A program made the translations under genes and the position numbers. From contig CABQHM010000001.1 in NCBI GenBank assembly GCA_902464015.1, forward strand, positions 91,244 through 155,243: a DNA stretch of 64,000 bases, written 5' to 3'. The notes beneath the pieces were generated by a model, which was given only the letters and a program-made list of their open reading frames with translations, made no database searches and was not told the origin of the DNA. Positions 2 through 50,064 of this stretch are shown here, one piece after another (the first letter of the stretch is position 1; the number at the start of each line of letters is the position of its first letter). The stretch comes from an uncultured Coriobacteriales bacterium. GTDB taxonomy: Bacteria > Actinomycetota > Coriobacteriia > Coriobacteriales > UMGS124.

Positions 2-415
2 AGGCGCGCGCTTGAGGTGAACGCCCCCGACGCAGACGACCCTCTCGACATGCTCGCAAAGCTGGGAGGCTTCGACATCGCAGGCCTTGTGGGACTCTAT
101 CTGGGGTGCGCTGTGCAGCGCATGCCCGTCGTCATCGACGGTTTCATCAGCTCGGTCGCAGCGCTTTTGGCCTGCCGCATCGCCCCTGCGAGCCGCGCCT
201 TCATGCTTGCCTCGCATCGCTCGGCCGAACCCGCGGCGGCGGCCGTGATGCGCGAGCTCGGCCTCTCCCCCATCATCGACGCTGGCATGCGCCTGGGCGA
301 GGGCACGGGGGCCGTGTGCCTCTTTCCCCTGCTCGACATGGCGTGCGCGCTTTACCGCGACGGCATGACGTTTGACGAGTACCACATGGACGCATACCAG
401 GAGCTGGGTAAATGA
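2..415 (+). CDS. cobT: Nicotinate-nucleotide--dimethylbenzimidazole phosphoribosyltransferase CobT, C-terminal part (5' end outside the window)
   Basis: The frame is open from base 2, so the GTG at 17 is only the first start-like codon. The sequence ...GGFDIAGLVGLYLGCA..PVVIDGFISSVAALLA..ASHRSAEPAAA..MRLGEGTGA matches the conserved CobT C-terminus. Its stop overlaps the next start (ATGA at 412). Confidence 0.8.
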   Translation, partial: RRALEVNAPDADDPLDMLAKLGGFDIAGLVGLYLGCAVQRMPVVIDGFISSVAALLACRIAPASRAFMLASHRSAEPAAAAVMRELGLSPIIDAGMRLGEGTGAVCLFPLLDMACALYRDGMTFDEYHMDAYQELGK

Positions 416-1125
416 TCTGCCTGGTGTGGGGTCCCTCGGCCAGCGGCAAGAGTGCCTGGGCCGAGACGCGGGCATGCGAGCTGGCGCAGGGCGCATCGAG
501 CGGGCAGGCGACGCCTGAGGCAGCGCCCGCCAACGGCGTGCGGCCCGCCCCAGATGAGACCGAGACGGCCGCCCCCGCGCGTCTCGCCTACTTCGCAACC
601 ATGCAGCGCGGCGGGCGCGAGGCTCAGGCGCGCATCGAAAAGCATCTGGCACAGCGGGCGGGAAAAGAATTCGTTACATATGAGACGCCCGTGCTTTCTG
701 CCCTAGCAGATACCCTGGTAGATGCGAGCGCGACCGTGCTTCTCGACGATTTGGGCAACCTTGTGGCCAACGAGATGTTCGGCGCGGAGACCCCGAACGC
801 AGACATCGAAGAACTTGCCGGGCGCATATGTGCGCGTTTGCTGGACCTCGCCGGACGCGTGCGCCACCTCGTGGTGGTAGCCGACGCCGTGGGCGAGGCG
901 GGCTGGCGGGGCGGCGGGCTCACCCTTGCGTGGATCGAGTGCTGTGAGACGTGCTGCTGCCTGCTTGCAAACGCCGCCGGCGAGGTCGTGGAGGTGCGCG
1001 GGGGCATCGCGCAAACGGTGAAGTCCCTGCGTCCGGCCCGCCTCGAGCAAATTGCCACAGAGACATTCACGAACCTGCCCACACATCCCTCACCACGAAA
1101 GGCCGCCCCATGCGACACCCGATAG
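412..1125 (+). CDS. cobU: Adenosylcobinamide kinase / adenosylcobinamide-phosphate guanylyltransferase (CobU/CobP family) with a low-complexity insert
   Basis: P-loop WGPSASGKSAWAE, an ARIEKHLAQR segment that contains a His, and LLDDLGNLVANE (CobU-like DClT.W..N). It sits between cobT and cobS. The C-terminal third is divergent and overlaps the cobS start by 16 nt. Confidence 0.7.
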   Translation: MICLVWGPSASGKSAWAETRACELAQGASSGQATPEAAPANGVRPAPDETETAAPARLAYFATMQRGGREAQARIEKHLAQRAGKEFVTYETPVLSALADTLVDASATVLLDDLGNLVANEMFGAETPNADIEELAGRICARLLDLAGRVRHLVVVADAVGEAGWRGGGLTLAWIECCETCCCLLANAAGEVVEVRGGIAQTVKSLRPARLEQIATETFTNLPTHPSPRKAAPCDTR

Positions 1126-1913
1126 AGAGCCTCCGTGCCGCCGGCCGCGCCGTGGCCATGGCGTTCTCCACGTTCTCTCGCATACCCATGCCCCAGATAT
1201 GCTGGGAAAAGGCCAACATGCGCTATCTTATGTGCGCCTTTGTGCTCGTGGGCGCGGTTGTGGGGGCGGCTCAGGTCGCCTGGCTTGCGCTTGCCGGCGC
1301 CTTGGGGCTCTCAAATCTTCTGCAAGGCGTGGGATACGTGCTTGTCGCCGTGGGCGTAACGGGCGGTATCCACCTCGACGGCCTCGCTGATGTGGCCGAC
1401 GCCCTTTCGAGCCACGCCGAACCCGCTCGCAAGGTTGAGATCATGAAGGACCCACACGCCGGCGCCTTTGCCCTCATCGCCCTTGTCTGCTACCTCATGG
1501 CGCAGGTGGCTCTTGCCGGCGAAGCAGGCATCTCGGGCGTGCGCGACCTCGTGGCGCTCGGCCTCATCCCCCTTGCCTCACGCTGTACAGCCGGCCTCGC
1601 CACACTTGTGCTGCCCAGCGCAAGCAAGCACGGCATGCAGCAGTCCTTCCGCGATGCGGGACGGACAGACACACGACCGCTTATACTGCTTGGCGCCGAG
1701 GGAGCCCTTGTGGCGTGCGCCATGGTGGCGGTGCGCCCTGTGTTCGGCCTGGTCGGCGTGGTCGTATGCGCTGCCTGCGCGGCACTCGCCGCCCGGCGTG
1801 CCCGCAAAGAATTCGGTGGCTTCAACGGCGACCAGGCGGGTTGTTTGCTCCAGACATGCGAGCTTGCGCTCCTCGCCCTGCTCGTGGTGGTCCAGAAGGC
1901 AGGACTTGCATGA
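1110..1913 (+). CDS. cobS: Adenosylcobinamide-GDP ribazoletransferase (cobalamin synthase) CobS
   Basis: Polytopic membrane protein. AMAFSTFSRIPMP and GGIHLDGLADVADAL are classic CobS motifs. I chose the internal ATG at 1110; the track ORF begins at 951 with an Arg-rich stretch that overlaps cobU. Confidence 0.85.
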   Translation: MRHPIESLRAAGRAVAMAFSTFSRIPMPQICWEKANMRYLMCAFVLVGAVVGAAQVAWLALAGALGLSNLLQGVGYVLVAVGVTGGIHLDGLADVADALSSHAEPARKVEIMKDPHAGAFALIALVCYLMAQVALAGEAGISGVRDLVALGLIPLASRCTAGLATLVLPSASKHGMQQSFRDAGRTDTRPLILLGAEGALVACAMVAVRPVFGLVGVVVCAACAALAARRARKEFGGFNGDQAGCLLQTCELALLALLVVVQKAGLA

Positions 1914-2311
1914 TTCTCATTGTGGGCGGGACAAGCTCGGGCAAGGCGACCTTTGCACGCAACCTCGCAGCACAGCATGGTTGGAGCGAGGACGACATCG
2001 CCTTCAACGTGGAAGAACTGCTGTGGGGGCAAGCCAAGGGCACCGACCAGATTACCCCGGCTGACGGCGATGCTGCCGACCATACCAGCAGCAAGGCCCT
2101 ATCGGCAACGCTCGAACTGCTTGAGCGGCTCGCGGCCAAAGAAATCGTCACCTGCTCTGAGGTGGGTGCAGGCATCGTGCCGCTCGACGCGCAGGAGCGC
2201 GCCTGGCGAGAGGCCGTGGGCCGCATGTCCTGCGAGCTGGCGAACCAAGCCGACGTCGTCGTGCGCATGGTCTGCGGCATCCCCGTCGTGCTCAAGGGAG
2301 AACTTGCATGA
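1910..2311 (+). CDS. Short CobU-like P-loop protein (133 aa), a truncated paralogue of adenosylcobinamide kinase
   Basis: ILIVGGTSSGKATFA P-loop plus a CobU-like C-terminus, SEVGAGIVPLD..R.WREAVGR..ELAN.ADVVV..VCGIPVVLKG. The central His-containing segment is missing. ATGA overlap with the cobS stop. Confidence 0.55.
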   Translation: MILIVGGTSSGKATFARNLAAQHGWSEDDIAFNVEELLWGQAKGTDQITPADGDAADHTSSKALSATLELLERLAAKEIVTCSEVGAGIVPLDAQERAWREAVGRMSCELANQADVVVRMVCGIPVVLKGELA

Positions 2312-3069
2312 ATGGCGCAGGTCGCACGGGATTGGCACCCAGCGCCCATGAACCCAGCCCCCTGCGCATCGCCCTCATCAGGCACGCGCCCACGCAGGGC
2401 AACCTGGAGGGACGCTATGTGGGCGCCACTGACGAGGACCTAGACGACCAGGGCCGCGCACGTGCCAGCGAGGCGGCCCCTGCGCTCTCCGGCCTGGCGC
2501 CCCGCCATCTCTTCACGAGCGGCATGCAGCGCTGCGACGAGACGGCGGTCATCCTCTTCCCAAAGCTGGTTCCTGCGCACCTGCCCGGCTTGGCCGAGAT
2601 GCACTTTGGAGCCTTTGAGGGCAAGACGTACGCCGAGATGGGCGAAGACGCGCGCTACCAGGCCTGGGTGGACTCGGGATGCACCGCGGCATGCCCCGGC
2701 GGCGAAGCGCAGGCAGAGTTTATCGCACGCGTGCGCACGGCGTTTGAGCAGGCACTCGACGACCTCGCAGGCGTGCAAGCAGGGAGCGGGAATCAGGGCT
2801 TGCAAGGCAGCGGGCGGCACGCAAACCGCGCAAGCCCGGATGCGCACAGGGACGCTCGCGCCATGGGAGCCGTAGACGCCGCTTTTCTTGTGCATGCAGG
2901 AACCATCATGGCGGCGATGTCGGAACTGGCAGAACCCAAGCGCAGCTACTGGGACTGGAAAACGACCTATTGTGCAGGCTTCGAGGCATGGGCACGGCAC
3001 GCGGAGAATGGCTGGCGACTCACAGATGTGCGGGAGCTGCCGCGTCGCATGGAGTATCATGGCGCCTGA
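2308..3069 (+). CDS. cobC: Alpha-ribazole phosphatase-like histidine phosphatase (CobC family)
   Basis: LRIALIRHAPTQGNLEGRYVGATDEDL (RHG-type phosphoglycerate-mutase-family motif) and FGAFEGKTYAEM. Located after cobS, with an ATGA overlap to the preceding gene. Contains a Gly/Gln-rich insert. Confidence 0.7.
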   Translation: MNGAGRTGLAPSAHEPSPLRIALIRHAPTQGNLEGRYVGATDEDLDDQGRARASEAAPALSGLAPRHLFTSGMQRCDETAVILFPKLVPAHLPGLAEMHFGAFEGKTYAEMGEDARYQAWVDSGCTAACPGGEAQAEFIARVRTAFEQALDDLAGVQAGSGNQGLQGSGRHANRASPDAHRDARAMGAVDAAFLVHAGTIMAAMSELAEPKRSYWDWKTTYCAGFEAWARHAENGWRLTDVRELPRRMEYHGA

Positions 3070-3084
3070 CCGTATCAAGCGCGA

Positions 3085-3275
3085 CACCCGGGGATTGTGC
3101 CTGGGTATTGCAGGGGGAACCGGGTGAGATTCCCGGACTAGGGACATAACTGTGAGGGCACGCGCCCGTAGTCAGATTACCCTGCCCGCCTGAGCGGCCA
3201 TCCCGCAAACGGGAGGCCGCGCACCGCATCCGCCCTGTGAACCCCGAGGCAGGTGCCTGCCAGAAGGCAACGCCG
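3085..3275 (+). promoter_or_regulatory. Cobalamin (B12) riboswitch
   Basis: Core elements read directly from the sequence: CAGGGGGAACCGGGTGAGATTCCCGG (3111-3136), ATAACTGTGAGG, and the B12 box GTAGTCAGATTACCCTGCC (3168-3186). It lies in the 265-nt gap upstream of the cbiK-like gene. The outer boundaries are approximate. Confidence 0.8.
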
Positions 3276-3334
3276 AGCCACACGTCCGGCGGGCCTTGGC
3301 GTGCGCGTACTCCACGAGAGAATTGGACACGCAC

Positions 3335-4237
3335 ATGTTCGAGACCGCACTTTCCCGTCGCACCGCCATCGCCGCAGGACTCACCGCCGCCGGCGCCAGC
3401 CTCGTCGCCCAGGCGGGCATCGCCCAGGCCGACGAGGCCAAGGCCCCCAAGCCCGTCATCCTCGTGGTGAGCTTCGGCACGAGCTACAACGACTCTCGCC
3501 ACATCACCATCGGTGCCATCGAGGACGCCATCCGCGAGGCCTACCCCGACTACGACGTGCGCCGCGCCTTCACCGCGCAGATCATCATCGACAAGCTCGC
3601 CGAGCGCGACGGCATCGTCATCGACAACTTCGAGCAGGCCATGGACAAGCTCGTGGAGGAGGGCGTGCAGAAGGTCATCGTGCAGCCCACCCACCTTATG
3701 GCCGGCTATGAGTACACCGACGTCCTCAACTCCCTGCAGAGCAATTACGCCGACAAGTTCGACGCCATCGTGCTGGGCGACCCGCTGCTCACGAGCGACG
3801 AGGACTATAGCGAGGTCGTTGAGGCCATCTGCGACGCCACGGCAGAATACGACGACGGTCAGACCGCCATCTGCTTCATGGGCCACGGCACCGAGGCCGA
3901 CTCCAACGGGGACTACACGCACCTGCAGCAGGTCCTGACCGACGCGGGCCACACGAGCTACTTCGTGGGCACCGTCGAGGCAACCCCCACGTTCGACGAC
4001 GTTGTCGAGGCCGCCCAGGCCGCCGGCTTCACCAAGGCCGTACTGCGCCCGCTCATGGTCGTCGCCGGCGACCACGCCAACAACGACATGGCCGACACCG
4101 AGGACCCCGACTCCTTTGCCAGCAAGTTCATCGCCGCTGGCTTTGAGGTCGAGTGCGTCGTCGAGGGCCTGGGCCAGCTCGTGGCCATCGACGACATCTA
4201 CGTGCGCCACGTGGCCGACGCCATCAACCAGCTCTAA
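3335..4237 (+). CDS. cbiK: CbiK-family sirohydrochlorin cobaltochelatase homologue with a twin-arginine signal peptide (predicted exported)
   Basis: MFETALSRRTAIAAGLTAAGASLVAQAGIAQA/DE is a Tat motif plus h-region plus AxA cleavage site. The mature part shows VILVVSFGTSY, VIVQPTHLMAGYEY and FMGHGTE, typical of CbiK. The track ORF starts at a TTG at 3296; I use the ATG at 3335. Confidence 0.8.
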   Translation: MFETALSRRTAIAAGLTAAGASLVAQAGIAQADEAKAPKPVILVVSFGTSYNDSRHITIGAIEDAIREAYPDYDVRRAFTAQIIIDKLAERDGIVIDNFEQAMDKLVEEGVQKVIVQPTHLMAGYEYTDVLNSLQSNYADKFDAIVLGDPLLTSDEDYSEVVEAICDATAEYDDGQTAICFMGHGTEADSNGDYTHLQQVLTDAGHTSYFVGTVEATPTFDDVVEAAQAAGFTKAVLRPLMVVAGDHANNDMADTEDPDSFASKFIAAGFEVECVVEGLGQLVAIDDIYVRHVADAINQL

Positions 4238-4267
4238 GCCTGCATAGCTTCCATATTTCAAGCAACA

Positions 4268-4319
4268 GGCCCCGCGTCGCACCGGCGTTTCCCCAGGCCG
4301 GCATGCATGGCGCGGGGCC
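4268..4319 (+). other. Intra-operon stem-loop (9-bp GC stem GGCCCCGCG / CGCGGGGCC); possible attenuator or processing site
   Basis: Inverted repeat 4268-4276 / 4311-4319 in the 97-nt gap between cbiK and the next gene, followed by CTTCCTCATTTCTGC. The loop is long (34 nt), so this is not a canonical terminator. Confidence 0.3.
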
Positions 4320-4334
4320 CTTCCTCATTTCTGC

Positions 4335-5264
4335 ATGAAGCGCATCATCCAAGGACAGCACATGACCTACAGCACACATCGCAACGCCATTGCACTCGCA
4401 GCGCTCAGTCTCACACTCCTCTGCGCGCCCCTGGCTTGGAACGCAGACCAGGCCCATGCTGCCGTGCGCATCCAGCCTGCCGCGACCCAGCAGGCTGGCG
4501 ATACCGGCAGTTCCTCCGACAAAGTAGCTCAGGGTGCGGCAGCGGCCCAGCAAGACCTGCCCGACACCAAGAAGCTCACCGCCGTGAAGGCCTCCGACCT
4601 TGAGGAGGGCACCTACACGATCGAAGTCGCCTCAAGCTCGAGCATGTTCCGCATCACCGAAGCAAAGCTCACCGTTGCTGACGGAAAAATGACCTGCGAG
4701 CTCACCATGAGCGGCAAAGGCTACGGCAAGCTTTTCATGGGCACGGGCGAGCAGGCCGCACAGGCCGACGAGAAGGACTGCATCCCCTACGTGGACAATG
4801 CGGGCGGCACGCACTCCTTCACGGTGCCGGTGGAGGCGCTCAACACCGAGATCGACTGCGCCGCGTGGAGCATCAAGAAAGAGTCCTGGTACGACCGCAC
4901 CCTGGTGTTCCTCGCCGACACGCTGAAGCCTGCCGAGGCCACGCTTGCCAACGGTACCTACACGGCCAGCGTGGCGCTTGAGGGCGGCACGGGCCGCGCG
5001 AGCGTAGAGACGCCCTGCACCCTCAAGGTGGAGAAGGGTGCCATGACCGCCACCGTGGTGTGGTCGAGCCCCAACTACGACCAGATGGTCGTGAACGGCA
5101 CGCAATACCTTCCCGTGAACAAGACCGGCAACTCGACGTTCGAGATCCCCGTGGCGGCGCTCGACACGCCCCTGGCCGTGCAGGCCGAGACGTGCGCGAT
5201 GAGCGAGCCGCACATGATTGACTACACGCTCACCTTCTCCGCACCCGTCGCGCAGAAGGGCTAG
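4335..5264 (+). CDS. Secreted protein with two tandem ~105-aa beta-rich domains; family unknown (candidate tetrapyrrole-binding surface protein)
   Basis: Signal peptide ...AIALAALSLTLLCAPLAWNADQAHA/AV (alternative start at ATG 4362). There is an internal repeat: aa 85-197 and aa 200-305 align (GTYT..V, [KT]L.V..G.MT, F..PV.AL.T, D.TL.F). I recognise no enzyme motif. Confidence 0.6.
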   Translation: MKRIIQGQHMTYSTHRNAIALAALSLTLLCAPLAWNADQAHAAVRIQPAATQQAGDTGSSSDKVAQGAAAAQQDLPDTKKLTAVKASDLEEGTYTIEVASSSSMFRITEAKLTVADGKMTCELTMSGKGYGKLFMGTGEQAAQADEKDCIPYVDNAGGTHSFTVPVEALNTEIDCAAWSIKKESWYDRTLVFLADTLKPAEATLANGTYTASVALEGGTGRASVETPCTLKVEKGAMTATVVWSSPNYDQMVVNGTQYLPVNKTGNSTFEIPVAALDTPLAVQAETCAMSEPHMIDYTLTFSAPVAQKG

Positions 5265-5268
5265 ACGG

Positions 5269-6567
5269 ATGACCCAGAGCCGCGAACGCACACGCACATG
5301 GCCTGCGAAAACCCTCACACGCAGGGATTTCATCGACTTAGCCGCTGCTGCTGGCGCAGGTGCGGCGTGCGTTGCGGCTCTGGGACTTGCGGGATGCTCT
5401 TGCGCCGACGACGGCGAGGTCGCAAACGGCGCGGCGACGTCGGCGAACCAGACGAGCGGCTCTGATGGGGACAACCCTGCGAGCGCCGAGCGTCCCTCGT
5501 GGAGCAACCCCGAGGTGGGAGGCAACCTTGTGCACACGGGCAGCCTCGACCTCGCCTGGGCCACAGGCTTCACCGTGGACCTCTACGAGGGAGACCGCGC
5601 CCTTGTCTGCATCGCCGACGGCACGCGCTACCTTTTTGTGCCCGCAGGCGATGCGTCCCAGGAAATCGCCGACGACATCACGGTGCTTGAGCGGCCCCTT
5701 TCGAACATCTACCTCGCAAGCTCCTCAACGCTGTGCCTCTTTGCGGCCCTCGACGCCGTGGATTGCGTGAGCCATGTGAGCGTCACGCAGGAAACTTGTA
5801 CGGTAGAGGCGTTTACGCAGGCCATCGCCTCGGGGGACATCGTCTACGGCGGCAAGTACAGCGCACCCGACTACGAGGCGTTTCTCAACGGCGGCTGCAG
5901 GCTCGCCGTGGAGAACACGATGATCTACCACACCCCCGAGGTGCGCGAGAAGCTCATGCAGCTCGGCGTTCCCGTCATCGTTGAACAATCGAGCCTGGAG
6001 AGCGCCCCGCTCGGCAGGCTCGAATGGATCATGCTGTGGGGCGCCATGCTCGACAAGGTGTCGGCGGCCCAAGAGGTTCTCGACAGGCAAGCCCAGCTTA
6101 TCGCAGACGTTGAGGCGCGTGTGGCAGCCCAGCCGCTCGACTGCACCGTCGCCTTCTTCTACATCAACGCCAACGGCGCGGCCGTGGTGCGAAAACCCGG
6201 CGACTACGTGGCGAAGATGATTGCCATGGCGGGCGGCACCTACGCGTTTGCCCAGCTCGCAGGCGCTGACGAGAACCGTTCCTCCTCCACCACGCTCGAG
6301 ATGGAGGCGTTCTACGCCCAGGCAAAAGACGCTGACGTCATCATCTACAACTCCACGGTGGCAGGCAGGCTCAAAGGACTCGACGAGCTTGTGGCGCTCA
6401 ACCCCTTGCTCGCTGACTTCAAGGCCGTCAAGAACCGCCGGGCCTGGTGCTGCGAGCAGAACGTCTACCAGCAGATGACTGCGACGGGCGAAGTGGTGGC
6501 CGACCTGCACGAGGCGATAGCCGACACCGAACGCGATGAGCTCACCTTCTTCTTCAGGCTCACATGA
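5269..6567 (+). CDS. ABC transporter substrate-binding lipoprotein, BtuF/FecB (periplasmic binding protein type 2) family, with Tat-type signal
   Basis: TRRDFIDLAAAAGAGAACVAALGLAGC is a twin-Arg motif plus a lipobox Cys. The body resembles cluster-A binding proteins (IYLASSS, PVIVEQS, WIMLWGAML, DVIIYNS). ATG at 5269; the track start at 5218 is Arg-rich and overlaps the previous gene. Confidence 0.8.
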   Translation: MTQSRERTRTWPAKTLTRRDFIDLAAAAGAGAACVAALGLAGCSCADDGEVANGAATSANQTSGSDGDNPASAERPSWSNPEVGGNLVHTGSLDLAWATGFTVDLYEGDRALVCIADGTRYLFVPAGDASQEIADDITVLERPLSNIYLASSSTLCLFAALDAVDCVSHVSVTQETCTVEAFTQAIASGDIVYGGKYSAPDYEAFLNGGCRLAVENTMIYHTPEVREKLMQLGVPVIVEQSSLESAPLGRLEWIMLWGAMLDKVSAAQEVLDRQAQLIADVEARVAAQPLDCTVAFFYINANGAAVVRKPGDYVAKMIAMAGGTYAFAQLAGADENRSSSTTLEMEAFYAQAKDADVIIYNSTVAGRLKGLDELVALNPLLADFKAVKNRRAWCCEQNVYQQMTATGEVVADLHEAIADTERDELTFFFRLT

Positions 6568-7622
6568 CACACGAAAGGCGCACGATGAGGCACACAGACA
6601 GCTGGCGAGACAGCAAGCGGCGATTCGTCGTGACCATGGTGCTGGCAAGCCTGGTGCTGGTGGCGCTTCTGTGCGCGAACCTGTGCATCGGGTCGGTGGG
6701 CATGAGCCCTGCCGAGCTGCTGGGAGCGCTCGCAGCAGGCCCGGGGGCAAGCGGCCTTGAAGCGAGCGTCATCTGGCAGATACGCCTGCCCCGCGCCGTG
6801 AGTGCCGCCATTCTCGGCGGGGCGCTTGCGTGCTCGGGCTTCTTGCTGCAGACCTTCTTCAACAACCCCATCGCGAGCCCCTACATCCTGGGCATCTCGG
6901 CAGGCGCCAAGTGCGCACTGGCCGCCGTGACGATCTGCGTCATCGGAGCAGGCGGGGCGCTTGCGTCCTGGCAGGTGGTGGGCGCGGCGTTTGTGGGCTC
7001 GCTGGCGGCAACCGCCCTGGTACTGGGCTTGTCAACAAAGATTCGCTCTATGAGCATGCTCATTGTCGCCGGCGTGATGGCAGGCTATGTCTTCAACGCG
7101 ATCACCGACTTCCTCGTGACCTTTGCAAGCGACCAGAACATCGTGAACCTGCACAACTGGGCCCTGGGCAGCTTCTCGGGGGCTACCTGGAGCCAGGTGG
7201 GCGTTGAGGCAGCCGTGTGCGCCGCGGGCTTCGCGGCCTCGATGGCGCTGGCAAAACCTATGGCGGCTTTCCAGCTCGGCGAGGGCTACGCCAAGAGCGT
7301 CGGCGTCAACGTGCGGCTCTTCCGCGCGGCGCTCATCGCCGTGGCAAGCCTTTTGGCCGCCTGCGTCACCGCTTATGCCGGCCCCGTGGGATTCGTGGGC
7401 ATCGCGGTGCCCTACCTGGCGCGTACGGCGCTTGCCTCCTCGAAGCCCGTGCGCGCAGTGCCGGCGTGCCTGGTGATGGGGGCTGCCTTCTGCCTTCTGT
7501 GCGACCTGGTGGCGCGCACGCTCTTCTCCCCCACCGAGCTCAACCTGGGCACGGTCACAGCCGTGTTCGGCGCACCGGTGGTCATCACGCTCATGATGCG
7601 CCGCACCCGGGAGGGACGTTAA
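6564..7622 (+). CDS. FecCD/BtuC-family ABC transporter permease
   Basis: About 10 hydrophobic helices. IRLPRAVSAAILGGALACSGFLLQ, NPIASPYILGISAGA and GPVGFVGIAVPYLAR are FecCD signatures. ATGA overlap with the binding-protein gene. Confidence 0.85.
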   Translation: MTHERRTMRHTDSWRDSKRRFVVTMVLASLVLVALLCANLCIGSVGMSPAELLGALAAGPGASGLEASVIWQIRLPRAVSAAILGGALACSGFLLQTFFNNPIASPYILGISAGAKCALAAVTICVIGAGGALASWQVVGAAFVGSLAATALVLGLSTKIRSMSMLIVAGVMAGYVFNAITDFLVTFASDQNIVNLHNWALGSFSGATWSQVGVEAAVCAAGFAASMALAKPMAAFQLGEGYAKSVGVNVRLFRAALIAVASLLAACVTAYAGPVGFVGIAVPYLARTALASSKPVRAVPACLVMGAAFCLLCDLVARTLFSPTELNLGTVTAVFGAPVVITLMMRRTREGR

Positions 7623-8846
7623 ATGATCAGGCAGATGGCGTTGCAGACGTACGGCCTCAATGTGGGATACGGGCGACGCTGCGTGGTGGGAGGCGTCACG
7701 CTCGACCTTGTGCCCGGCGAAGTGCTCTGCCTCGTGGGGCCCAACGGCTCGGGCAAGTCGACCCTGCTCAAGACAATCGCCGGCCAGATTGCGCCCCTAG
7801 GCGGCACCGTGCTGCTCGATGGGCGCGACGCGAGCTCCTTCAAGGCAGACGAGCTGGCCCGCAGCCTCTCGGTGATGCTCACGGGGCGCATGGCCTGCGA
7901 GATGCTGAGCTGCCTAGACGTGGTGGAGACGGGCCGCATCCCCTACACGAACGCCCTGGGCACACTGCGCGAGGCCGACCGCGAAGCGGTGAAGGGTGCC
8001 ATGCAGGCCGTGGGCGCCTGGGAGCTGCGCGAGCGCGACTTCATGCAGATAAGCGACGGCCAACGCCAGCGCGTGCTGCTGGCCCGCGCCATCGCCCAGG
8101 ACGCACCCGTGATGGCGCTCGACGAACCCACCTCCTACCTCGACATTCGCCATCAGCTGGAGCTGCTTGCCTGTGTGCGCGACCTTGCGCGCACGCGCGG
8201 GTGGACCTGCCTGCTGTCGCTGCACGAGCTCGCCTTGGCCCAGAAGGTTGCCGACCGGGTGGCCTGCGTGTGCGAGGGCGGCATATATGCGCAAGGTGCC
8301 CCCGAGGACGTGCTTGACGCGCCCACGGTGGCCCATGTGTTCGACTTGGGGCGCGCGGCTTGGAGCGCGGCGCTGGGATGCGTGGAGGATGCGCCGCTCG
8401 AAAGCGCGGCCCGCGTGTTTGTGCTTGGAGGCGCGGGCACAGCGGCAGCCTCGATGCGTGCGCTGCGCCGCGAGGGCGTGGGCTTCTGCGCAGGCGTGCT
8501 GCCTGAAAACGACGTGGATTGTGTGCTTGCACATAGGCTCACGGCCCACGTGGTGAGCACGTCGGCCTTTACTCTGCCCGGCAAGGAGACGATGGCGCTG
8601 GCCCGTGAGATGCTTGCGGGTTGCGAGGCACTTGTGGACTGCCTGAGCTCGATGGATGCGGGGCCTCTGGAGGCCTGCCGACGCGATATGCTCGCGTGCG
8701 CACAAGCGGCAGGGCTTCCCGTCCATGGGAGCGCAGTACAGTATTTGGAAGCGTTGCGCAATCAAAAAGCACACGAAGATGCAGGCAGAGAGGTATGTAT
8801 TTGCTGCGATGCCACGGCGGCGCGAGCAGAGGCGGTGAGGCCATGA
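7623..8846 (+). CDS. ABC transporter ATP-binding protein (BtuD/FecE-like) with a ~145-aa C-terminal extra domain
   Basis: Walker A GPNGSGKST, signature ISDGQRQR, Walker B VMALDEPT, H-loop LSLHE. Residues ~262-407 (VFVLGGAGTAAASMRALRREGVGF..) lie beyond a normal ATPase. The stop overlaps the cbiD start (ATGA at 8843). Confidence 0.85.
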   Translation: MIRQMALQTYGLNVGYGRRCVVGGVTLDLVPGEVLCLVGPNGSGKSTLLKTIAGQIAPLGGTVLLDGRDASSFKADELARSLSVMLTGRMACEMLSCLDVVETGRIPYTNALGTLREADREAVKGAMQAVGAWELRERDFMQISDGQRQRVLLARAIAQDAPVMALDEPTSYLDIRHQLELLACVRDLARTRGWTCLLSLHELALAQKVADRVACVCEGGIYAQGAPEDVLDAPTVAHVFDLGRAAWSAALGCVEDAPLESAARVFVLGGAGTAAASMRALRREGVGFCAGVLPENDVDCVLAHRLTAHVVSTSAFTLPGKETMALAREMLAGCEALVDCLSSMDAGPLEACRRDMLACAQAAGLPVHGSAVQYLEALRNQKAHEDAGREVCICCDATAARAEAVRP

Positions 8847-10057
8847 CGCTCGAGCACTATGTCGAGGTCGGCAAGAAGCGCCTGCGCTGCGGCTACACCA
8901 CGGGCACCTGCGCGGCCGCGGCGGCCCAGGCCTGCGGGCAGGCGCTTCTTGCGGGGAGCTTTCCCCACTCCCTGCGCATCGACACCCCGGCGGGCGTTGC
9001 TGTGGTAGTGGAACCCGAAGAGATGCATCGGGGCACCGATGCACAGGGCACCCCCTGGTCAAGCTGCGGGGTGCGCAAGGACGCAGGCGACGACGCGGAT
9101 GCCACCGACGACGCGCTGGTCGTGGTACGCGTGAGCCTCACGGACACTCCGGGCACAACAATTGAGGGTGGTGCCGGCGTGGGGCGCGTGACGCGCGCCG
9201 GGCTCGACCAGCCCGTGGGAGCCGCGGCCATCAACTCGGTACCCCGCGCCATGATTGCCTCCGAGCTCGAGCGGATTGCCCGCGAGCATGGCTGGCATGG
9301 CGGCTTTGCGGTGGAGGTGTCGGTGCCCGGCGGAGAAGAAATCGCACGCAAGACCTTCAACCCGCGCCTGGGCATTGAAGGGGGCATTTCGATTCTGGGA
9401 ACGTCGGGCATCGTGCGGCCCATGAGCGAGGAGGCCCTCGTCGAGTCCATCCGCCTGGAGATGCGCATGAGACGTGCGCAGGGACTGCGCGACCTTGTGC
9501 TCGTGCCGGGAAACTACGGCCAGGACTGGGCGCAAGACAGGGAAGGCGTCGACCCCACACATATCGTGAGCTGCTCGAACTTCCTGGGCGAGGCGCTTGA
9601 TTACGCTGGTGTGCTCGGCTTTGAGACGCTTGTGCTCGTGGGGCATATGGGCAAGCTCGCCAAGGTCGCAACGGGCGCCATGAACACCCACTCGCGCGTG
9701 GCCGACGGGCGCGCCGAGGCGTTCGCGGCACATGCAGCCCTGGCAGGTGCAGGGCGCGACGACATCGCCCGCCTTATGGAGTGCGCCACGACCGACGAGG
9801 CGCTTGAGGTGCTCGCGGGGCACGGCCCAGGCGAGACGGCCGTCTCAGATGAGCGAGAGTGCCTGCTCGCCACAACGCTGCGCGGCCTCACGCAGGCAAT
9901 TGCGTGGCACGTAAGCCGGCGAGGAGACCCCGTACGCTGCGAGGTCGTGGTGTTCTCGAAGGCATGGGGCGAGTTGGGACGATCGGGTGGGGCGCAGGAA
10001 CTCTTGGACAGGCACCGCGTGCGCGGCACGGCGGCAAGGAAGGAAGGCCGGATATGA
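8843..10057 (+). CDS. cbiD: Cobalt-precorrin-5B (C1)-methyltransferase CbiD
   Basis: LRCGYTTGTCAAAAA, GVGRVTRAGL, GISILGTSGIVRPMS and LVPGNYG are CbiD hallmarks. The internal ATG at 8843 was chosen. Confidence 0.9.
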   Translation: MTLEHYVEVGKKRLRCGYTTGTCAAAAAQACGQALLAGSFPHSLRIDTPAGVAVVVEPEEMHRGTDAQGTPWSSCGVRKDAGDDADATDDALVVVRVSLTDTPGTTIEGGAGVGRVTRAGLDQPVGAAAINSVPRAMIASELERIAREHGWHGGFAVEVSVPGGEEIARKTFNPRLGIEGGISILGTSGIVRPMSEEALVESIRLEMRMRRAQGLRDLVLVPGNYGQDWAQDREGVDPTHIVSCSNFLGEALDYAGVLGFETLVLVGHMGKLAKVATGAMNTHSRVADGRAEAFAAHAALAGAGRDDIARLMECATTDEALEVLAGHGPGETAVSDERECLLATTLRGLTQAIAWHVSRRGDPVRCEVVVFSKAWGELGRSGGAQELLDRHRVRGTAARKEGRI

Positions 10058-10935
10058 TCGACTTTGTGGGAGCGGGCCCGGGCGCCGTCGACCTCATAAC
10101 CGTGCGCGGCATGCATGCCCTGCAGCAGGCAGACGTCGTGGTGTACGCAGGCTCACTGGTAGATCCCGAGATGCTGTCGTATTGCCGTCCCGAGGTGAAA
10201 GTGCACGACTCGGCACATATGACGCTTGAGGAAGTCGTCGACGTGCTCGTGGCAAGCGACCGCGCAGGCAAGCACACCGTGCGCCTGCACACGGGAGACC
10301 CGGCCATGTACGGGGCCATCCGCGAGCAGATGGACCTGCTCGACGAGGCAGGCGTGACCTATCGGGTGATACCCGGCGTGTCGAGCGTGTTTGCCGCGGC
10401 AGCGGCCCTCAACTGCGAGTTCACCCTGCCCAGCGTGTCCCAGTCGCTCGTGCTCACACGCGTGGAGGGGCGCACGCCGGTGCCGAGCGGCGAGGAGCTG
10501 CGCACGTTTGCCGCCCATGGCTGCACCATCGCGCTCTTTCTCTCCTGCGGTCTGCTCGAACGCGCCCGTGAGGAGCTGCTTACAGGAGACCTGTCGCCCC
10601 AGACCCCGGCGGCCCTTGTGTATCGTGCAAGCTGGCCCGATGAGAAAATCGTGCGCTGCGATGTAGGGAGCCTGCCCGAAGCGGCCCGCGAGGCAGGACT
10701 CAGCAGGCAGGCAATCGTGCTCGTGGGAGACGCCCTAGCCGGCAGCCTTAAAGCCGCCCACGCCGAGCGGTCGCTGCTCTACGACCCGAGCTTCACGCAC
10801 GGCTACCGCGTGGGAACGGGTGGAGACGAAACGCTGGCAGGCAGCGCGGATGCGGGCCCGGCGGCGCAGGATGACACGCAAGGTATGCAGGGCACGCAGG
10901 ACCTACGCGACCCGCACGACGAGGCGCACGCATGA
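10054..10935 (+). CDS. cbiF: Cobalt-precorrin-4 C11-methyltransferase CbiF
   Basis: IDFVGAGPGAVDLITVRG, VVVYAGSLV, RLHTGDPAMYGAIREQ, IPGVSSVFAAAAAL and LTRVEGRTPVP. ATGA overlap with cbiD. Has a ~45-aa low-complexity C-terminal tail. Confidence 0.9.
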   Translation: MIDFVGAGPGAVDLITVRGMHALQQADVVVYAGSLVDPEMLSYCRPEVKVHDSAHMTLEEVVDVLVASDRAGKHTVRLHTGDPAMYGAIREQMDLLDEAGVTYRVIPGVSSVFAAAAALNCEFTLPSVSQSLVLTRVEGRTPVPSGEELRTFAAHGCTIALFLSCGLLERAREELLTGDLSPQTPAALVYRASWPDEKIVRCDVGSLPEAAREAGLSRQAIVLVGDALAGSLKAAHAERSLLYDPSFTHGYRVGTGGDETLAGSADAGPAAQDDTQGMQGTQDLRDPHDEAHA

Positions 10936-12089
10936 GCCAGATTGCCATCGCGGGGTTCACGACAAGCGGCTGCGTTCTGGCCCAAAAGATAGTCAGCGAA
11001 CTGGAAGGCGCCCGTGCCTGGGCACCGCACCGCATCTCCGAAGAAGTGGGCCTACCCGGCTTCGACAGTGTCGGGGCATGGGCAGGCGAGGCTTTTGCGC
11101 ACGGCTGCGACGGCATCGTCTTCGTGGGAGCGTGCGGCATCGCCGTGCGCGCCATAGCCCCGTATGTGACCAGCAAGATGCACGACCCCGCTGTCGTGTG
11201 CGTGGACGAGGCCGGCACTTGGGCAATATCCCTGCTCAGCGGCCATGTGGGCGGCGCAAACGACCTTGCGCGCCACATCGCGCGCATCGTGGGGGCCACG
11301 CCTGTCGTCACCACGGCCACCGACGTGCGCGGCGCCTTCGCCATCGACGAGTGGGCGGCACGGCAAGGCCTCGTCATCGCAAATCCCCAGCTCATCAAGC
11401 ATGTTTCAGGCGCACTGCTCGAGGGTGGGCACGTTGGGGTGCGCGTGGGACGGCAGGTGTCCCTGACAGGCGAGCTTCCCGCGGGGTTCGTGCGCGAGGA
11501 GTGCGCAGGCGACACGAGCAGCGCAAGCGACACGAACGACACTGGCGACATCCGCAAGCCCTGCCCCGCAGGAGCCGCCCCCGACTCAGCGGATGCATCT
11601 CACGTTCTTCACGCGCACGTCCACATCGGGCCCGAGCTGCCCTGTGAAAACGACCCCGACACGCTGCATCTCATCACGCGCAACGCAGTGGTGGGCGTCG
11701 GGTGCAGGCGCGGTTGCGAGCCGGCAATCCTGCAAGACTGCGTCGAGGCAGCGCTGGTCGGCCTTGGTTTGGCGCCGGAATCAGTGCGCGCTCTGGCCAC
11801 CATCGACCTCAAGGCCGCAGAGCCCGCCGTGGTCGAGCTTGCCGCAAAGCACGGCTGGCTCCTGCGCACCTTTAGCGCCCAGGCACTCGCCGCGCAAAGC
11901 GGTGACTTCGCATCGTCGGAGTTCGTGCGGGCCCACGTGGGCGTGGACAACGTGTGCGAGCGGGCCCTTGCCTGCTGCGGGGCCACGCGCATCCTCAGCA
12001 AGCAGGCCCATCAGGGAACGACCGTGGCCGTGGGCCTTGTGCCCAAGGCGCTCAGCTTTGATATGAAGGAAGGAAGCGACCATGCCTAA
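10932..12089 (+). CDS. cbiG: Cobalt-precorrin-5A hydrolase CbiG
   Basis: GIVFVGACGIAVRAIAPYV, PAVVCVDEAG, SLLSGHVGGANDLA and the C-terminal CbiG domain (VVGVGCRRG...LATIDLKA.EPA). ATGA overlap with cbiF. Confidence 0.85.
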   Translation: MSQIAIAGFTTSGCVLAQKIVSELEGARAWAPHRISEEVGLPGFDSVGAWAGEAFAHGCDGIVFVGACGIAVRAIAPYVTSKMHDPAVVCVDEAGTWAISLLSGHVGGANDLARHIARIVGATPVVTTATDVRGAFAIDEWAARQGLVIANPQLIKHVSGALLEGGHVGVRVGRQVSLTGELPAGFVREECAGDTSSASDTNDTGDIRKPCPAGAAPDSADASHVLHAHVHIGPELPCENDPDTLHLITRNAVVGVGCRRGCEPAILQDCVEAALVGLGLAPESVRALATIDLKAAEPAVVELAAKHGWLLRTFSAQALAAQSGDFASSEFVRAHVGVDNVCERALACCGATRILSKQAHQGTTVAVGLVPKALSFDMKEGSDHA

Positions 12090-12825
12090 GCTCTACGTTG
12101 TGGGCCTGGGACCCGGAGCGGGAGCCGACCTCACCCAGCGTGCCCGCGCGGCGCTCGAAGAAAGCCAGGTCATAGCCGGATACACGACCTACGTCAACCT
12201 TGTGCGCGATGCCTTTCCCGAAAAAGAGCTGCTCGTAAGCGGCATGCGCGGCGAGGTTCAGCGCTGTCGGGCGGCCCTGGAGCATGCGGCAGGAGGGGCG
12301 ACGGTGGCTCTCGTGTGCTCGGGCGATCCGGGCGTCTACGGCATGGCGGGCCTCGTGCTCGAACTCGCCCAGGACATGGGCCTGGCAGACGCAGTCGAGG
12401 TTGAGGTCGTGGCCGGTGTCACCGCCGCCACGGGAGGAGCGGCGCTTTTGGGCGCGCCCCTCATGCACGACTTCTGCCTCGTGTCGCTTTCCGACCTGCT
12501 CACACCCTGGGATGCCATCGAGGCGAGGCTGCGTGCGGCAGCGCGTGCCGGCTTTGTCATCTGCCTCTACAACCCCTGCTCCCACGGCAGGCCCGACCAC
12601 CTGGCACACGCGACGCAGATCCTGCTTGAGGAGCTGCCGGCGAGCTGCGTGTGTGGCATCGCACATAACGTGGGCAGACCCGGCGAAAGCGCGCGCGTGC
12701 TCACCTTGGGCGAACTCGCGGATGCCCCGGCCGACATGACGAGCGTTGTCTACGTGGGCAACGCCACAACGCGCGAAATCGCCGGCCGCATGGTGACGCC
12801 GCGCGGCTACCAGGTGAGGCAGTAG
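12082..12825 (+). CDS. cbiH: Cobalt-precorrin-3B C17-methyltransferase CbiH
   Basis: LYVVGLGPGAGADLT, VIAGYTTYV, VCSGDPGVYGMAG and LSDLLTPW. 8-nt overlap with cbiG. Confidence 0.9.
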   Translation: MPKLYVVGLGPGAGADLTQRARAALEESQVIAGYTTYVNLVRDAFPEKELLVSGMRGEVQRCRAALEHAAGGATVALVCSGDPGVYGMAGLVLELAQDMGLADAVEVEVVAGVTAATGGAALLGAPLMHDFCLVSLSDLLTPWDAIEARLRAAARAGFVICLYNPCSHGRPDHLAHATQILLEELPASCVCGIAHNVGRPGESARVLTLGELADAPADMTSVVYVGNATTREIAGRMVTPRGYQVRQ

Positions 12826-13599
12826 ATGGCAGGCGGCTCTCAGGCATGCCGCGTCCTCGTGTTCGCCGGAACCACAGAGGGCCGCGAGCTGGCATCATGG
12901 CTGAGCACGCAAGACGGCGTGGAAACGTGCGTGTCGTGCGCGACCGACTTCGGGGCGCACCTTCTAGGGGCGCTCCCCCACACTCGCGTCTTGGCACAGC
13001 GTCTGGACGAGGTGGGCATGGAACACCTCATGGCACAGGGCGCGTTTGATGTGGTGGTTGACTGCACGCACCCCTACGCAAGCGTTGTCACCGCGAATGC
13101 CCGCGCGGCAGCCCTGGCGCAGGGATGCGAGTACCTGCGCGTTGTGCGCGAGGGGGAGCCCGTTGGCGATTGGATTCGGGCGGAGTCGCCGGCGCATGCC
13201 GCCGAACTGCTGGCCGGCCTTCCCGGAGACATCCTGCTCACCACGGGCACGAAGGACATCGCCGCCTACTGCTCGCAACCCGGCCTTCGTGAGCGCATCT
13301 GGGTACGCTGCCTTCCCAACGAGGCATCGGTTCAGGCGGCGCGGCAAGCGGGCATCCCGCCCGAGCGCATCGTGGGTGCCATGGGACCGTTCTCCCTGGA
13401 AGACAACGTGGCGCTCATCAGACACAGCGGCGCGCGCATCCTCGTGACAAAGGCCTCGGGCACGACGGGCGGTTTTTGGGAGAAAGTGCAGGCAGCACGA
13501 AAGACGAGGTGCACGCTTGTCGTCATTGGGCGGCCGACGAAAGAAGAGGGCCTCACGCTTGAGGAGGCCAAGGCACAGCTGGCAAGGAGGTTTGGATGA
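12826..13599 (+). CDS. cbiJ: Cobalt-precorrin-6A reductase CbiJ
   Basis: VLVFAGTTEGRELA, VVDCTHPYA, LLTTGTKD and LVTKASGTTGG. Position in the cbi string supports the call. Confidence 0.85.
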   Translation: MAGGSQACRVLVFAGTTEGRELASWLSTQDGVETCVSCATDFGAHLLGALPHTRVLAQRLDEVGMEHLMAQGAFDVVVDCTHPYASVVTANARAAALAQGCEYLRVVREGEPVGDWIRAESPAHAAELLAGLPGDILLTTGTKDIAAYCSQPGLRERIWVRCLPNEASVQAARQAGIPPERIVGAMGPFSLEDNVALIRHSGARILVTKASGTTGGFWEKVQAARKTRCTLVVIGRPTKEEGLTLEEAKAQLARRFG

Positions 13600-16237: not shown

Positions 16238-17205
16238 GCCTGGCCGCAGGCTATGTAGCCGACCTCGCTCTGGGCGACCCACACGGCTGGCCCCACCCCG
16301 TGCGCTGGATGGGCTCCCTCATCGCTCGGCTCGAGCCTGCCCTGCGCCGTACCTTCCCCGACACACCGCGCGGCAAGCGGGCTGCGGGCGCAGCGCTTGT
16401 GTGCCTGGTCACGGGCATCAGCGGTGGTGCGTGCGCGGCCGCGCTCGCCCTGGCGGGAGCCGTCAGTCCCTATCTATCCTGCGCGGTAGGGGCGCTTGTA
16501 AGTTACTGGATGCTTGCGACCAAATCGCTCAAGGACGAGAGCATGGCCGTGCTCGACGCCCTGGAACACGCGGGCCTGCCCGAGGCGCGCATGCGCGTCT
16601 CCATGATCGTAGGCCGCGACACGGCAGCGCTCACCGAAGAGGGCGTCACGAAGGCCGCGGTGGAGACGGTAGCCGAAAACGCCTCGGACGGCGTCATCGC
16701 TCCCCTTTTCTACCTGGCGCTGTTGGGACCAGTGGGCGGGGTCGTCTACAAGGCGATCAACACCATGGACTCGATGGTGGGTTACAAAAACGACCGCTAC
16801 CTCGACTTCGGCCGCGCAGCCGCCAAGCTCGACGACGCGGTGAACTTTATCCCCGCTCGCCTGGCCGGCGCTCTCATGTGCCTGGCCGCCCCCCTTGCAG
16901 GCTTTGACGGCAAGCGCGCCTGGCGCACCTTTCGGCGCGACCGGCTCGCCCACACCTCGCCCAACTCCGCCCACACCGAGGCGGCCTGCGCGGGAGCCCT
17001 GGGCATACAGCTGGCCGGACCCAACTACTATGGCGGCGTGCTGGTGGAGAAACCCACGCTGGGCGAGGCATGCCGTGCGGTGGAACCCGCCGACATCCGC
17101 CGAGCAAACAGGCTGCTCTATGCCACAAGCCTGCTGGCACTGCCCGTATGCGCAGGACTCGGGACTCTTGTGTGGACGCTTGTGAGAGCGGCGGCGGGAC
17201 TATGA
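16192..17205 (+). CDS. cbiB: Adenosylcobinamide-phosphate synthase CbiB
   Basis: DLALGDPHGWPHPVRWMG, VGRDT..L, ENASDGVIAPLFY and SPNSAHTEAA. The start is uncertain: ATG 16192 or GTG 16219, and both overlap the cbiA 3' end. Confidence 0.85.
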   Translation: MGRAEKGRDVYLHLVSLAAGYVADLALGDPHGWPHPVRWMGSLIARLEPALRRTFPDTPRGKRAAGAALVCLVTGISGGACAAALALAGAVSPYLSCAVGALVSYWMLATKSLKDESMAVLDALEHAGLPEARMRVSMIVGRDTAALTEEGVTKAAVETVAENASDGVIAPLFYLALLGPVGGVVYKAINTMDSMVGYKNDRYLDFGRAAAKLDDAVNFIPARLAGALMCLAAPLAGFDGKRAWRTFRRDRLAHTSPNSAHTEAACAGALGIQLAGPNYYGGVLVEKPTLGEACRAVEPADIRRANRLLYATSLLALPVCAGLGTLVWTLVRAAAGL

Positions 17206-17263
17206 GAAGACATGTTTGGATGAAGCCGCGCACACGTGCGGCACAGCGAACGGGAGGAGCGGC

Positions 17264-50060: not shown

Positions 50061-50064
50061 AGTC

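Follow-up and report, generated by a model that had tools for sequence, protein, structure and literature searches.

A predicted exported CbiK chelatase leads a conserved NEAT and importer cassette in the cobalamin gene cluster of a Coriobacteriales bacterium

The cobalamin gene cluster of an uncultured Coriobacteriales bacterium (contig CABQHM010000001.1) contains a cbiK gene whose product is predicted to leave the cytoplasm. We analysed this gene in a stretch of 64,000 nucleotides, called here the window. Judged by its sequence, the product is a full-length class-II chelatase that looks catalytically intact and has a conserved export signal. Action outside the cytoplasm, as predicted from that signal, is much the best reading. 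The gene opens a five-gene cassette with the order exported CbiK, secreted tandem NEAT-fold protein, binding lipoprotein with a twin-arginine (Tat) signal, FecCD permease and ATP-binding cassette (ABC) ATPase. Comparison with relatives shows these five genes as one conserved unit, predicted to be under the control of a cobalamin riboswitch, as seen in the relatives. Our tentative reading, with a probability of about 0.45, is that a planar tetrapyrrole would be metalated and relayed at the cell surface, and then imported for the supply of cobalt or B12. The features of the cassette are the following:

3335-4237, plus strand: cbiK open reading frame (ORF), ATG start, 300 aa, N-terminus MFETALSRRTAIAAGLTAAGASLVAQAGIAQA/DEAKAPKPVILVVSFGTSY
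3335..3430, plus strand: Tat signal peptide of CbiK, residues 1-32, predicted cleavage AQA/DE by direct reading of the sequence
3431..4237, plus strand: mature class-II chelatase (CbiK) domain, PF06180, catalytic residues H184, E215 and H247
4362..5264, plus strand: secreted tandem NEAT-fold protein, 300 aa, domains at about 83-190 and 198-293, Sec-type signal MTYSTHRNAIALAALSLTLLCAPLAWNADQAHA
5269..6567, plus strand: substrate-binding lipoprotein (Peripla_BP_2, by Pfam) with Tat motif and lipobox (TRRDFIDLAAAAGAGAACVAALGLAGC)
6585..7622, plus strand: FecCD-family permease of a type II ABC importer, Pfam FecCD E = 5e-76
7623..8846, plus strand: ABC ATPase with a C-terminal MJ0874-type domain, Pfam ABC_tran and PF27219

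The chelatase domain is complete. Pfam CbiK (PF06180) matches residues 42-297 with E = 2e-80 and covers model positions 3-261 of 262. The relatives in PDB are Salmonella CbiK (9e-45), FetB from P. gingivalis (4e-40) and CbiK(P) from D. vulgaris (9e-37). In the PDB alignment, H184, E215 and H247 correspond to Salmonella H145, E175 and H207. The two histidines of the Salmonella enzyme (His145 and His207) were shown to matter for cobalt insertion (PMC7689651). For the wider family we took the 150 closest representatives of 50%-identity clusters. A full CbiK domain is present in 128 of them; at least 58 of these 128 are exported forms and about 40 are leaderless. The three catalytic residues are invariant in the orthologue alignment. 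They are conserved at 88-91% among 58 exported representatives, as among the cytoplasmic ones, and no alignment column of the family representatives separates the two classes. Against the sirohydrochlorin cobaltochelatase equivalog NF047852, the window CbiK scores 220.8 bits, under the curated cut-off of 400. The position of His96 in CbiK(P) is Thr128 in the window protein, with the SEQRES index taken as residue number. We take His96 to be an axial ligand of haem in CbiK(P); its assignment in the D. vulgaris protein is reportedly due to Romao et al. in 2011. A leaderless sequence with 50% identity to the window CbiK (P0160) has lost the catalytic residues. It reads FVDYGAEG for FMGHGTE and AADTAATT for AGDHANND. 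This single sequence, from a 2-kb contig, may be a decayed copy.

The gene is the only one of its kind in the window. A hidden Markov model (HMM) of the CbiK family, built from the 128 representatives, matches one of 588 six-frame ORFs of at least 60 aa. This is ORF 3335-4237 (E = 2e-118), and the next has E > 4; a very divergent small CbiX could slip past this model. No other CbiK or CbiX is found among the 50 window genes scanned with Pfam. Likewise, no chelatase is present in the 6.7 kb upstream of the window, as read from identical metagenome contigs. An earlier note on this DNA, made from the letters alone, had described a CbiK body behind a twin-arginine signal and no further CbiK or CbiX among the cobalamin genes. 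Both statements are borne out, the first by the Pfam match together with the RR motif, the AQA site and the signals of orthologues, and the second over the whole 64 kb.

The start of the gene deserves attention. Past the signal, the first in-frame alternative starts are GTG codons within strand beta-1 (KPVILVVSFGTS). A leaderless product is implausible because these starts fall inside that strand, and reading of the ORF finds no in-frame start 3' of the signal that spares it. The earlier note had seen a true start downstream as a danger to its proposal; no later start keeps the domain intact. A mis-called start is ruled out, since the downstream starts break the domain and the orthologues keep their signals. 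On the 5' side of the ATG, an in-frame TTG at 3296 adds 13 residues and gives a longer n-region with the signal retained; some gene callers give 313 aa. The third-position GC of the ORF is 0.93, the maximum of the window.

The call of the signal, a predicted localisation, combines motif reading and comparison of orthologues. The motif S-R-R-T-A-I (SRRTAIA) matches the Tat core S/T-R-R-x-F-L. The h-region is rich in Ala, Gly and Thr and weakly hydrophobic, and the cleavage site A-Q-A is of the AxA type. For the orthologues, a genome scan with a six-sequence CbiK alignment listed 80 loci, the window's own species not among them, and the window proteins were mapped on these loci by tblastn. All readable N-termini of complete orthologues in the 80 loci have a Tat or a Sec/lipoprotein signal. 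The orthologue of Collinsella, for example, begins with MSDQMSRRGFMGAAATGAVALAGVALAGCS. The RR motif and the h-region are retained in Coriobacteriia and some Oscillospiraceae, with a lipobox in Collinsella, other Coriobacteriales and some Oscillospiraceae. Elsewhere the signals are of the Sec/lipobox type, and those of Firmicutes are Sec-type lipoprotein signals. Orthologues whose identity to the window protein is only 55-70% still have export signals. This switching between Tat and Sec/lipobox signals argues for selection on export itself. In the window, CbiK and the NEAT protein show sites of the signal-peptidase I type and lack an anchor, whereas most orthologues are lipoproteins.

The Tat signal is the least remarkable feature of the finding. 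Its use seems customary in the lineage rather than required for function, because the Firmicutes orthologues use Sec signals and the window binding protein also has a Tat signal. This binding protein is a predicted Tat-exported lipoprotein, which suggests that Tat is habitual for envelope proteins in the window organism. For the same reasons, the proposal of the earlier note that Tat serves to let CbiK leave the cell folded and loaded is weakened.

The cassette, whose four later genes and leader the earlier note had not brought into its reading, is conserved among relatives. An exported-type CbiK is present at each of the 80 loci listed. Where a locus is long enough, the binding protein, the permease and the ATPase are nearly always present in the same order, and most loci have the NEAT gene. 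The exceptions are a few loci where the NEAT gene is missing and one where the transporter genes are. The cassette is found in many Collinsella species (about 70% identity), other Coriobacteriales, Oscillospiraceae, Lachnospiraceae, Roseburia, Ruminococcus and a metagenome-assembled genome (MAG) of Gaiellales. An Eggerthellaceae MAG shares the layout. In most of the 36 diverse (non-Collinsella) loci, the cassette is inside or beside cbi or cob genes; in eight of the 36, the available flanks showed no cbi or cob gene. CbiK is the only chelatase within 10 kb of the diverse cassettes. No cbiMNQO, CbiX or hem gene recurs within 10 kb among 150 ORFs from about 30 diverse loci, a set in which families of single occurrence are not all covered. 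CbiL is present in several of the cassette-bearing clusters.

Two observations concern the Collinsella loci. In one genome, CbiD and CbiL read as a single ORF of 666 aa (locus L045, 702-2699, minus strand). Sister species have CbiL as a gene of its own or lack it in the cluster, and the position of CbiL in the Collinsella group is therefore unstable. The locus L023, labelled Ellagibacter isourolithinifaciens DSM 104140, is near-identical to Collinsella loci in sequence, gene order, signal peptide and leader. This suggests contamination, mis-binning or recent transfer.

The regulation of the cassette was examined in the 265-nucleotide gap that separates cobC from cbiK, where we found one further feature:

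3065..3202, plus strand: cobalamin-riboswitch-like leader in the cobC-cbiK gap, below the Rfam threshold

The full model RF00174 scores 19.3 bits over 3065-3202, against a gathering score of 31.5. In a local search, the AdoCbl-II family (RF01689) gives 23.3 bits over 3099-3190 (E = 0.005), against a gathering score of 36.5. The leader of C. aerofaciens at the equivalent place reaches 16.2 bits. The core GGGAAnCnGGTGnGAnTCCnGnnCnAGGGnCATnACTGT and the downstream element TGTGAACCCCGAGG are common to the window and Collinsella. A P4-like hairpin shows two compensatory pairs among the three diverged sequences compared. In related loci, cobalamin riboswitches above threshold (37-116 bits) lie directly 5' of the cassette in 13 of the 16 tested. 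More precisely, they are present in four of seven loci of the first set, in all eight without cbi neighbours, and in L088. All 13 positive relatives are Firmicutes. We predict that B12 represses the cassette as an independent unit, because bona fide riboswitches precede the cassettes of relatives, including those that stand alone. Such control resembles that of known genes for B12 synthesis, cobalt transport and corrinoid transport.

The second gene encodes a protein of NEAT fold. Its Pfam NEAT match of 34.1 bits is barely over the cut-off of 32.8. The AlphaFold model, built with 42 homologues, has a confidence (pLDDT) of 82 and two beta-sandwich domains. Foldseek matches the whole model to IsdH-N2N3 and IsdB. 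The single domains match IsdX1, IsdX2-N5, IsdC and Hbp2-N2, with target TM-scores of 0.64-0.69. Single-sequence searches of PDB gave no matches for this protein or for the binding protein, and a NEAT profile against PDB sequences was insignificant. The informative searches were the fold search for the NEAT protein and the profile search for the binding protein. The haem motif Y-x3-Y of the last strand is not retained: domain A has Tyr177-x3-Leu181 and domain B has His284-x3-Tyr288. An invariant Ser-Ser-Ser-Ser-Met95-Phe occupies the loop after the first long strand. By the predicted strand order, without residue-level superposition, this Met95 loop would be in the place of the canonical haem-binding lip of NEAT domains. 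The invariance of the potential axial ligands, placed by this strand order, suggests that a metal-containing macrocycle is bound. The C-terminus (...LTFSAPVAQKG) shows no LPXTG, NPQTN or hydrophobic tail.

The three transporter proteins were compared with known families and structures. The profile of the binding protein matches, in PDB, Lmo2184 from Listeria (1.9e-8), IsdE (2.7e-3) and also siderophore-binding proteins; BtuF is absent from the PDB matches at E <= 1. The best NCBIfam match of the permease is BtuC, with 201.6 bits, and the cut-off of 334 is not reached. For the ATPase it is the archaeal corrinoid ABC ATPase PRK09536, with 236.6 bits, and the cut-off of 537 is not reached.

Protein fusions in the family give further evidence. 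Some exported CbiKs belong to large surface proteins that also carry SLH, choline-binding, fn3 or NEAT domains. CbiK and both NEAT domains are joined in the 574-aa lipoprotein P0142, which is present on several contigs, and P0141 and P0153 join CbiK with one NEAT domain each. Some leaderless CbiKs have CbiL, SirC, a HemC/D-like protein, CbiO or a CobW-like GTPase as fusion partner. Such partners are what a cytoplasmic pathway enzyme would be expected to have. In a neighbour-joining tree, exported and cytoplasmic forms make up large blocks that are mixed in places. The leaderless P0170-type CbiK is rare in Coriobacteriia and has exported forms as its nearest relatives; in its single context, it adjoins folate genes at a contig end. 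P0149/P0502, found on at least 16 contigs, joins the importer ATPase to a leaderless CbiK, and the stretch between the two has no hydrophobic segment. The operon at 5357-11947 of L088/L089 unites these elements. It has a riboswitch (77.8 bits), a lipoprotein CbiK-NEAT, a binding protein, a permease and an ATPase-CbiK, and it stands alone amid housekeeping genes. In this operon a chelatase domain is predicted on each side of the importer. Such an arrangement argues that the cargo joins the chelation reaction, as metal or as macrocycle.

The cassette of the window is flanked by cobalamin genes on both sides. These genes and a hairpin within the cassette are:

17..3069, plus strand: cobT (partial), cobU, cobS, a C-terminal fragment of cobU, and cobC, nucleotide-loop genes (Pfam, NCBIfam)
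8843..19554, plus strand: cbiD, cbiF, cbiG, cbiH, cbiJ, cbiET, cbiA, cbiB, cbiP and cbiC, corrin-ring and amidation genes (Pfam, NCBIfam)
4268..4320, plus strand: GC-rich hairpin without U-tract, in the 124-nucleotide gap between cbiK and the NEAT gene

The start of cbiD overlaps the end of the ATPase gene, and the genes from cbiD to cbiC are probably in one operon with the cassette. By Pfam and NCBIfam, the block has no CbiL, uroporphyrinogen-III methyltransferase, SirC, hem genes or cbiMNQO. The early steps of the pathway are encoded elsewhere or absent, as these missing genes indicate. The earlier note had supposed that a cytoplasmic chelatase may be encoded elsewhere, as the block has none. 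The absence of a second chelatase stands and the argument from it is weakened. This absence is uninformative alone because CbiL, the next step, is also missing from the block. The segment 4238-4345 folds with -42.1 kcal/mol (z = -2.0), and the hairpin could set the ratio of CbiK to the downstream products. A scan of 2900-5400 for promoters and terminators found none.

Upstream of cobT, the identical metagenome contigs have only a gene with an HMA domain, hisS, clpB and ispD. The HMA protein (131-162 aa) is directly upstream of cobT in all contigs of the window species (L001-L004, about 5155-5643) and could be a metal chaperone linked to the cluster. Two CobU-like ORFs, at 412-1125 and 1910-2311 (plus strand), flank cobS. 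The match of the second is confined to the C-terminal half of the family (model positions 97-167), and this ORF is called as a separate 133-aa gene in all related contigs. At 3 kb downstream of the cobalamin block, 22770-24566 (plus strand) encodes a nickel insertion protein of the LarC type (PF01969, E = 9e-125), a further metal-insertion function close to the cbi genes. A full-length raiA RNA is present at 31514-31776 (minus strand), with 155.5 bits against a gathering score of 101.3. It is directly upstream of an SBP_bac_3 gene (30500-31546), with a slight overlap with the longest ORF. Finally, a System I cytochrome c maturation (Ccm) locus lies at 48466-53746 (minus strand):

48466-49455, minus strand: CcmC-like protein
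50065-50784, minus strand: ABC ATPase
50789-53014, minus strand: CcmF
53030-53746, minus strand: CcmE

It follows that the organism produces c-type cytochromes and has to bring haem to the outer face. The locus looks more like that of Eggerthellaceae than that of Collinsella.

Exported CbiK proteins are a class already known from D. vulgaris CbiK(P) and P. gingivalis FetB/IhtB. CbiK(P) (PDB 2XVX) is an exported CbiK with an intact active site, as in the window. It differs in its place, a Gram-negative periplasm rather than a monoderm surface, in the lack of a NEAT partner, and in having His96 where the window CbiK has Thr128. D. vulgaris is said to have a second, cytoplasmic CbiK(C) (described by Lobo et al. 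in 2008). A construct of CbiK(P) without its signal was reportedly needed to complement a cbiK or cysG mutant. We take the cbiK of the B12-regulated arrangement of Desulfovibrio to be that of periplasmic CbiK(P). CbiK(P) then has, like the window CbiK, a FecCD/BtuCD-type ABC importer as its neighbour and a B12 element as its regulator. One such element controls cbiK-cbiL and btuCDF in Desulfovibrio (Rodionov et al., PMC545781).

FetB/IhtB of P. gingivalis (PDB 9B86; ihtABCDE) is a surface lipoprotein of CbiK fold; genes for a binding protein, a permease and an ATPase accompany its own. Unlike the window protein, it is an outer-membrane lipoprotein with a TonB-dependent receptor as partner and no NEAT protein. 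Its context in the literature is haem, protoporphyrin IX (PPIX) and the Mn-PPIX pigment. FetB inserts Co and Mn into porphyrin in vitro; it does not insert Fe or dechelate haemin (PMC13065792). The transcripts of the iht operon do not respond to iron or haem starvation (PMC12094164). The best solved relative is Salmonella enterica CbiK (PDB 1QGO, 9e-45), with the same bilobal fold and the catalytic His145, Glu175 and His207. It is a leaderless cytoplasmic sirohydrochlorin cobaltochelatase, whereas the window CbiK has a 32-residue Tat signal. The Salmonella gene adjoins cbiL and the cobalt transporter cbiMNQO.

The haem relays Isd and Hbp (IsdB/H/C to IsdE to IsdF; Hbp2-Lmo2184) share folds and logic with the cassette. 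In both, surface NEAT domains are followed by a Peripla_BP_2 lipoprotein and a FecCD permease. The cassette differs in its riboswitch instead of Fur control, in the lack of a sortase signal, and in including a chelatase. Its NEAT protein has Tyr177-x3-Leu and His284-x3-Tyr288 for Y-x3-Y, with an invariant Met95. BtuG, BtuH and BtuJ of Bacteroides are likewise accessory surface proteins in riboswitch-controlled B12 uptake loci of gut bacteria. They have unrelated folds and no enzyme active site, and are Gram-negative and TonB-dependent. Compared with the BtuFCD importer, the permease and ATPase of the cassette are below the equivalog cut-offs and the binding protein is not BtuF-like. What is new is a Gram-positive CbiK that bears a Tat or lipoprotein signal and has as partners, separate or in fusion, a tandem NEAT protein and an Isd-like importer. 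Also new are the cobalamin-riboswitch control and the position as sole chelatase in B12 clusters of abundant gut Coriobacteriia and Clostridia. The literature covered, with most subscription journals outside its scope, holds no description that combines NEAT domains with a cobaltochelatase, a riboswitch or B12.

The surface relay that we prefer would operate as follows. The exported CbiK would exchange metal on a planar tetrapyrrole, similar to sirohydrochlorin or a porphyrin, outside the membrane, with Co2+ insertion as the most likely reaction. The NEAT domains would hold the metallated macrocycle and hand it to the binding protein, as Isd NEAT domains do with haem for IsdE. The type II importer would take the macrocycle in, and imported cobalt-sirohydrochlorin would join the pathway at CbiL. 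Abundant adenosylcobalamin would lower the expression of the cassette, which would fit a service to cobalt and/or tetrapyrrole supply for corrin synthesis. The evidence points to a planar tetrapyrrole rather than a corrinoid as the cargo because of the NEAT fold, the Isd-type binding profile, the retained triad, the activity of FetB and the ATPase-CbiK fusion. On this reading, the window CbiK is not the usual enzyme of the cytoplasmic pathway. A second chelatase would then lie in another part of the genome, or chelation itself would take place outside the cytoplasm. The earlier note had proposed a non-biosynthetic role outside the cytoplasm. The extracytoplasmic part is sustained, and its candidates, metal insertion or removal on scavenged tetrapyrroles and haem or corrinoid binding, remain live hypotheses. 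The word non-biosynthetic is weakened: the cassette serves the B12 or cobalt economy because it is B12-regulated and usually embedded in cbi genes. A wider proposal, which we consider doubtful, is that cobalt insertion or acquisition is extracellular in many Gram-positive gut anaerobes. In them, a surface CbiK, a NEAT relay and the importer would feed CbiL with a macrocycle that is salvaged or released by the cell itself as a 'cobaltophore'. If this were true, no cytoplasmic chelatase or dedicated cobalt transporter would be needed.

Several points weigh against the surface relay. We know of no extracellular sirohydrochlorin and of no sirohydrochlorin exporter. The match of the window leader to a riboswitch is below threshold, and this leader may control the whole downstream cbi operon and not the cassette alone. 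The permease and the ATPase are nearest to BtuC and a corrinoid ATPase (both under the cut-offs), as would be expected of a simple corrinoid importer. Conservation of the catalytic histidines could just as well reflect a role as cobalt ligands for a bound corrinoid. A cytoplasmic CbiX/CbiK, CbiL and a cobalt transporter may well be encoded elsewhere in the genome. In the literature, D. vulgaris CbiK(P) and FetB have been described in terms of haem or iron. Finally, the choice of cobalt by CbiK depends on the buffered availabilities of metals in the cytoplasm (PMC7689651). Zn, Ni, Cu or Fe could be competitors in the extracellular space, where selectivity is doubtful.

The same genes could capture corrinoids, although we regard this as rather unlikely. 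The transporter would then be an importer of cobamides or cobinamide of the BtuFCD type. The exported CbiK and the NEAT protein would be surface corrinoid binders, Gram-positive counterparts of BtuG/BtuH, with the histidines as ligands of cobalt. Riboswitch-controlled ABC importers of this class are standard B12 uptake systems, and 13 of the 16 related cassettes are preceded by a riboswitch. The nearest NCBIfam families of the permease and the ATPase, and the cassettes that stand alone without cbi genes in the available flanks, agree with this role. Accessory surface B12 binders are common in gut Bacteroides (PMC6143338, PMC10404256). The profile of the binding protein leads instead to haem-type proteins and not to BtuF, and NEAT pockets suit planar porphyrins. 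The catalytic site is fully conserved without any class-specific change and FetB is a Co/Mn chelatase, both of which speak for an enzyme. A leaderless CbiK on the importer ATPase is hard to square with a capture protein that works outside. Moreover, the cassette is tied to genes of de novo ring synthesis in most diverse loci.

An Isd-like uptake of haem or iron, with a NEAT relay and IsdE-like and IsdF-like proteins, is improbable. Here the exported CbiK would bind haem or remove its iron. This would suit the NEAT fold, the binding protein similar to IsdE and Lmo2184, the published proposals for D. vulgaris CbiK(P) and P. gingivalis IhtB/FetB, and the Ccm locus, by which the organism uses haem. 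The riboswitches at 13 of 16 related loci, with all eight stand-alone cassettes included, argue for B12 instead, as does the position in cbi clusters and not in iron or haem regulons. The presumed haem ligand His96 of CbiK(P) is Thr128 here, and the canonical Y-x3-Y of NEAT domains is absent. The cassette is also conserved in Collinsella and Lachnospiraceae, which to our knowledge do not have c-type cytochromes. Likewise, FetB neither inserts Fe nor dechelates haemin (PMC13065792), and iht transcripts are not moved by iron or haem starvation (PMC12094164). A conventional sirohydrochlorin cobaltochelatase of the cytoplasm is less probable still. It would require a non-functional signal, a mis-called start, or a Tat substrate that acts before its export; Tat substrates do fold before export. 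CbiK is the sole chelatase of the cluster in the window and in relatives, with intact catalytic residues. Predictions from genomes do count such genes as the pathway step, and C. aerofaciens was called a B12 producer on the criteria CbiK/X or CysG (PMC4403557). Nevertheless, no alternative start leaves the domain intact, and the export signals are conserved while their type switches between Tat and Sec. Orthologues with Sec-lipoprotein signals cannot work in the cytoplasm, and CbiK is fused to surface modules (NEAT, SLH and choline-binding).

A step that is counted as internal B12 synthesis may occur at the cell surface. Calls of gut B12 producers from genomes count any CbiK or CbiX as cytoplasmic chelation. 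Should the sole CbiK in clusters of Collinsella, of Eggerthellaceae type and of many Lachnospiraceae and Oscillospiraceae be extracellular, these pathways would be incomplete and reliant on salvaged intermediates. Alternatively, they would contain an unrecognised step outside the cell that couples cobalt capture to tetrapyrrole import. The cassette gives the exported CbiKs beside BtuCD-like transporters, such as CbiK(P) and FetB/IhtB, a shared and testable frame. New partners in it are the tandem NEAT protein and the second chelatase that some species have joined to the transporter ATPase. NEAT domains would thus extend beyond haem-iron, into the context of vitamin B12.

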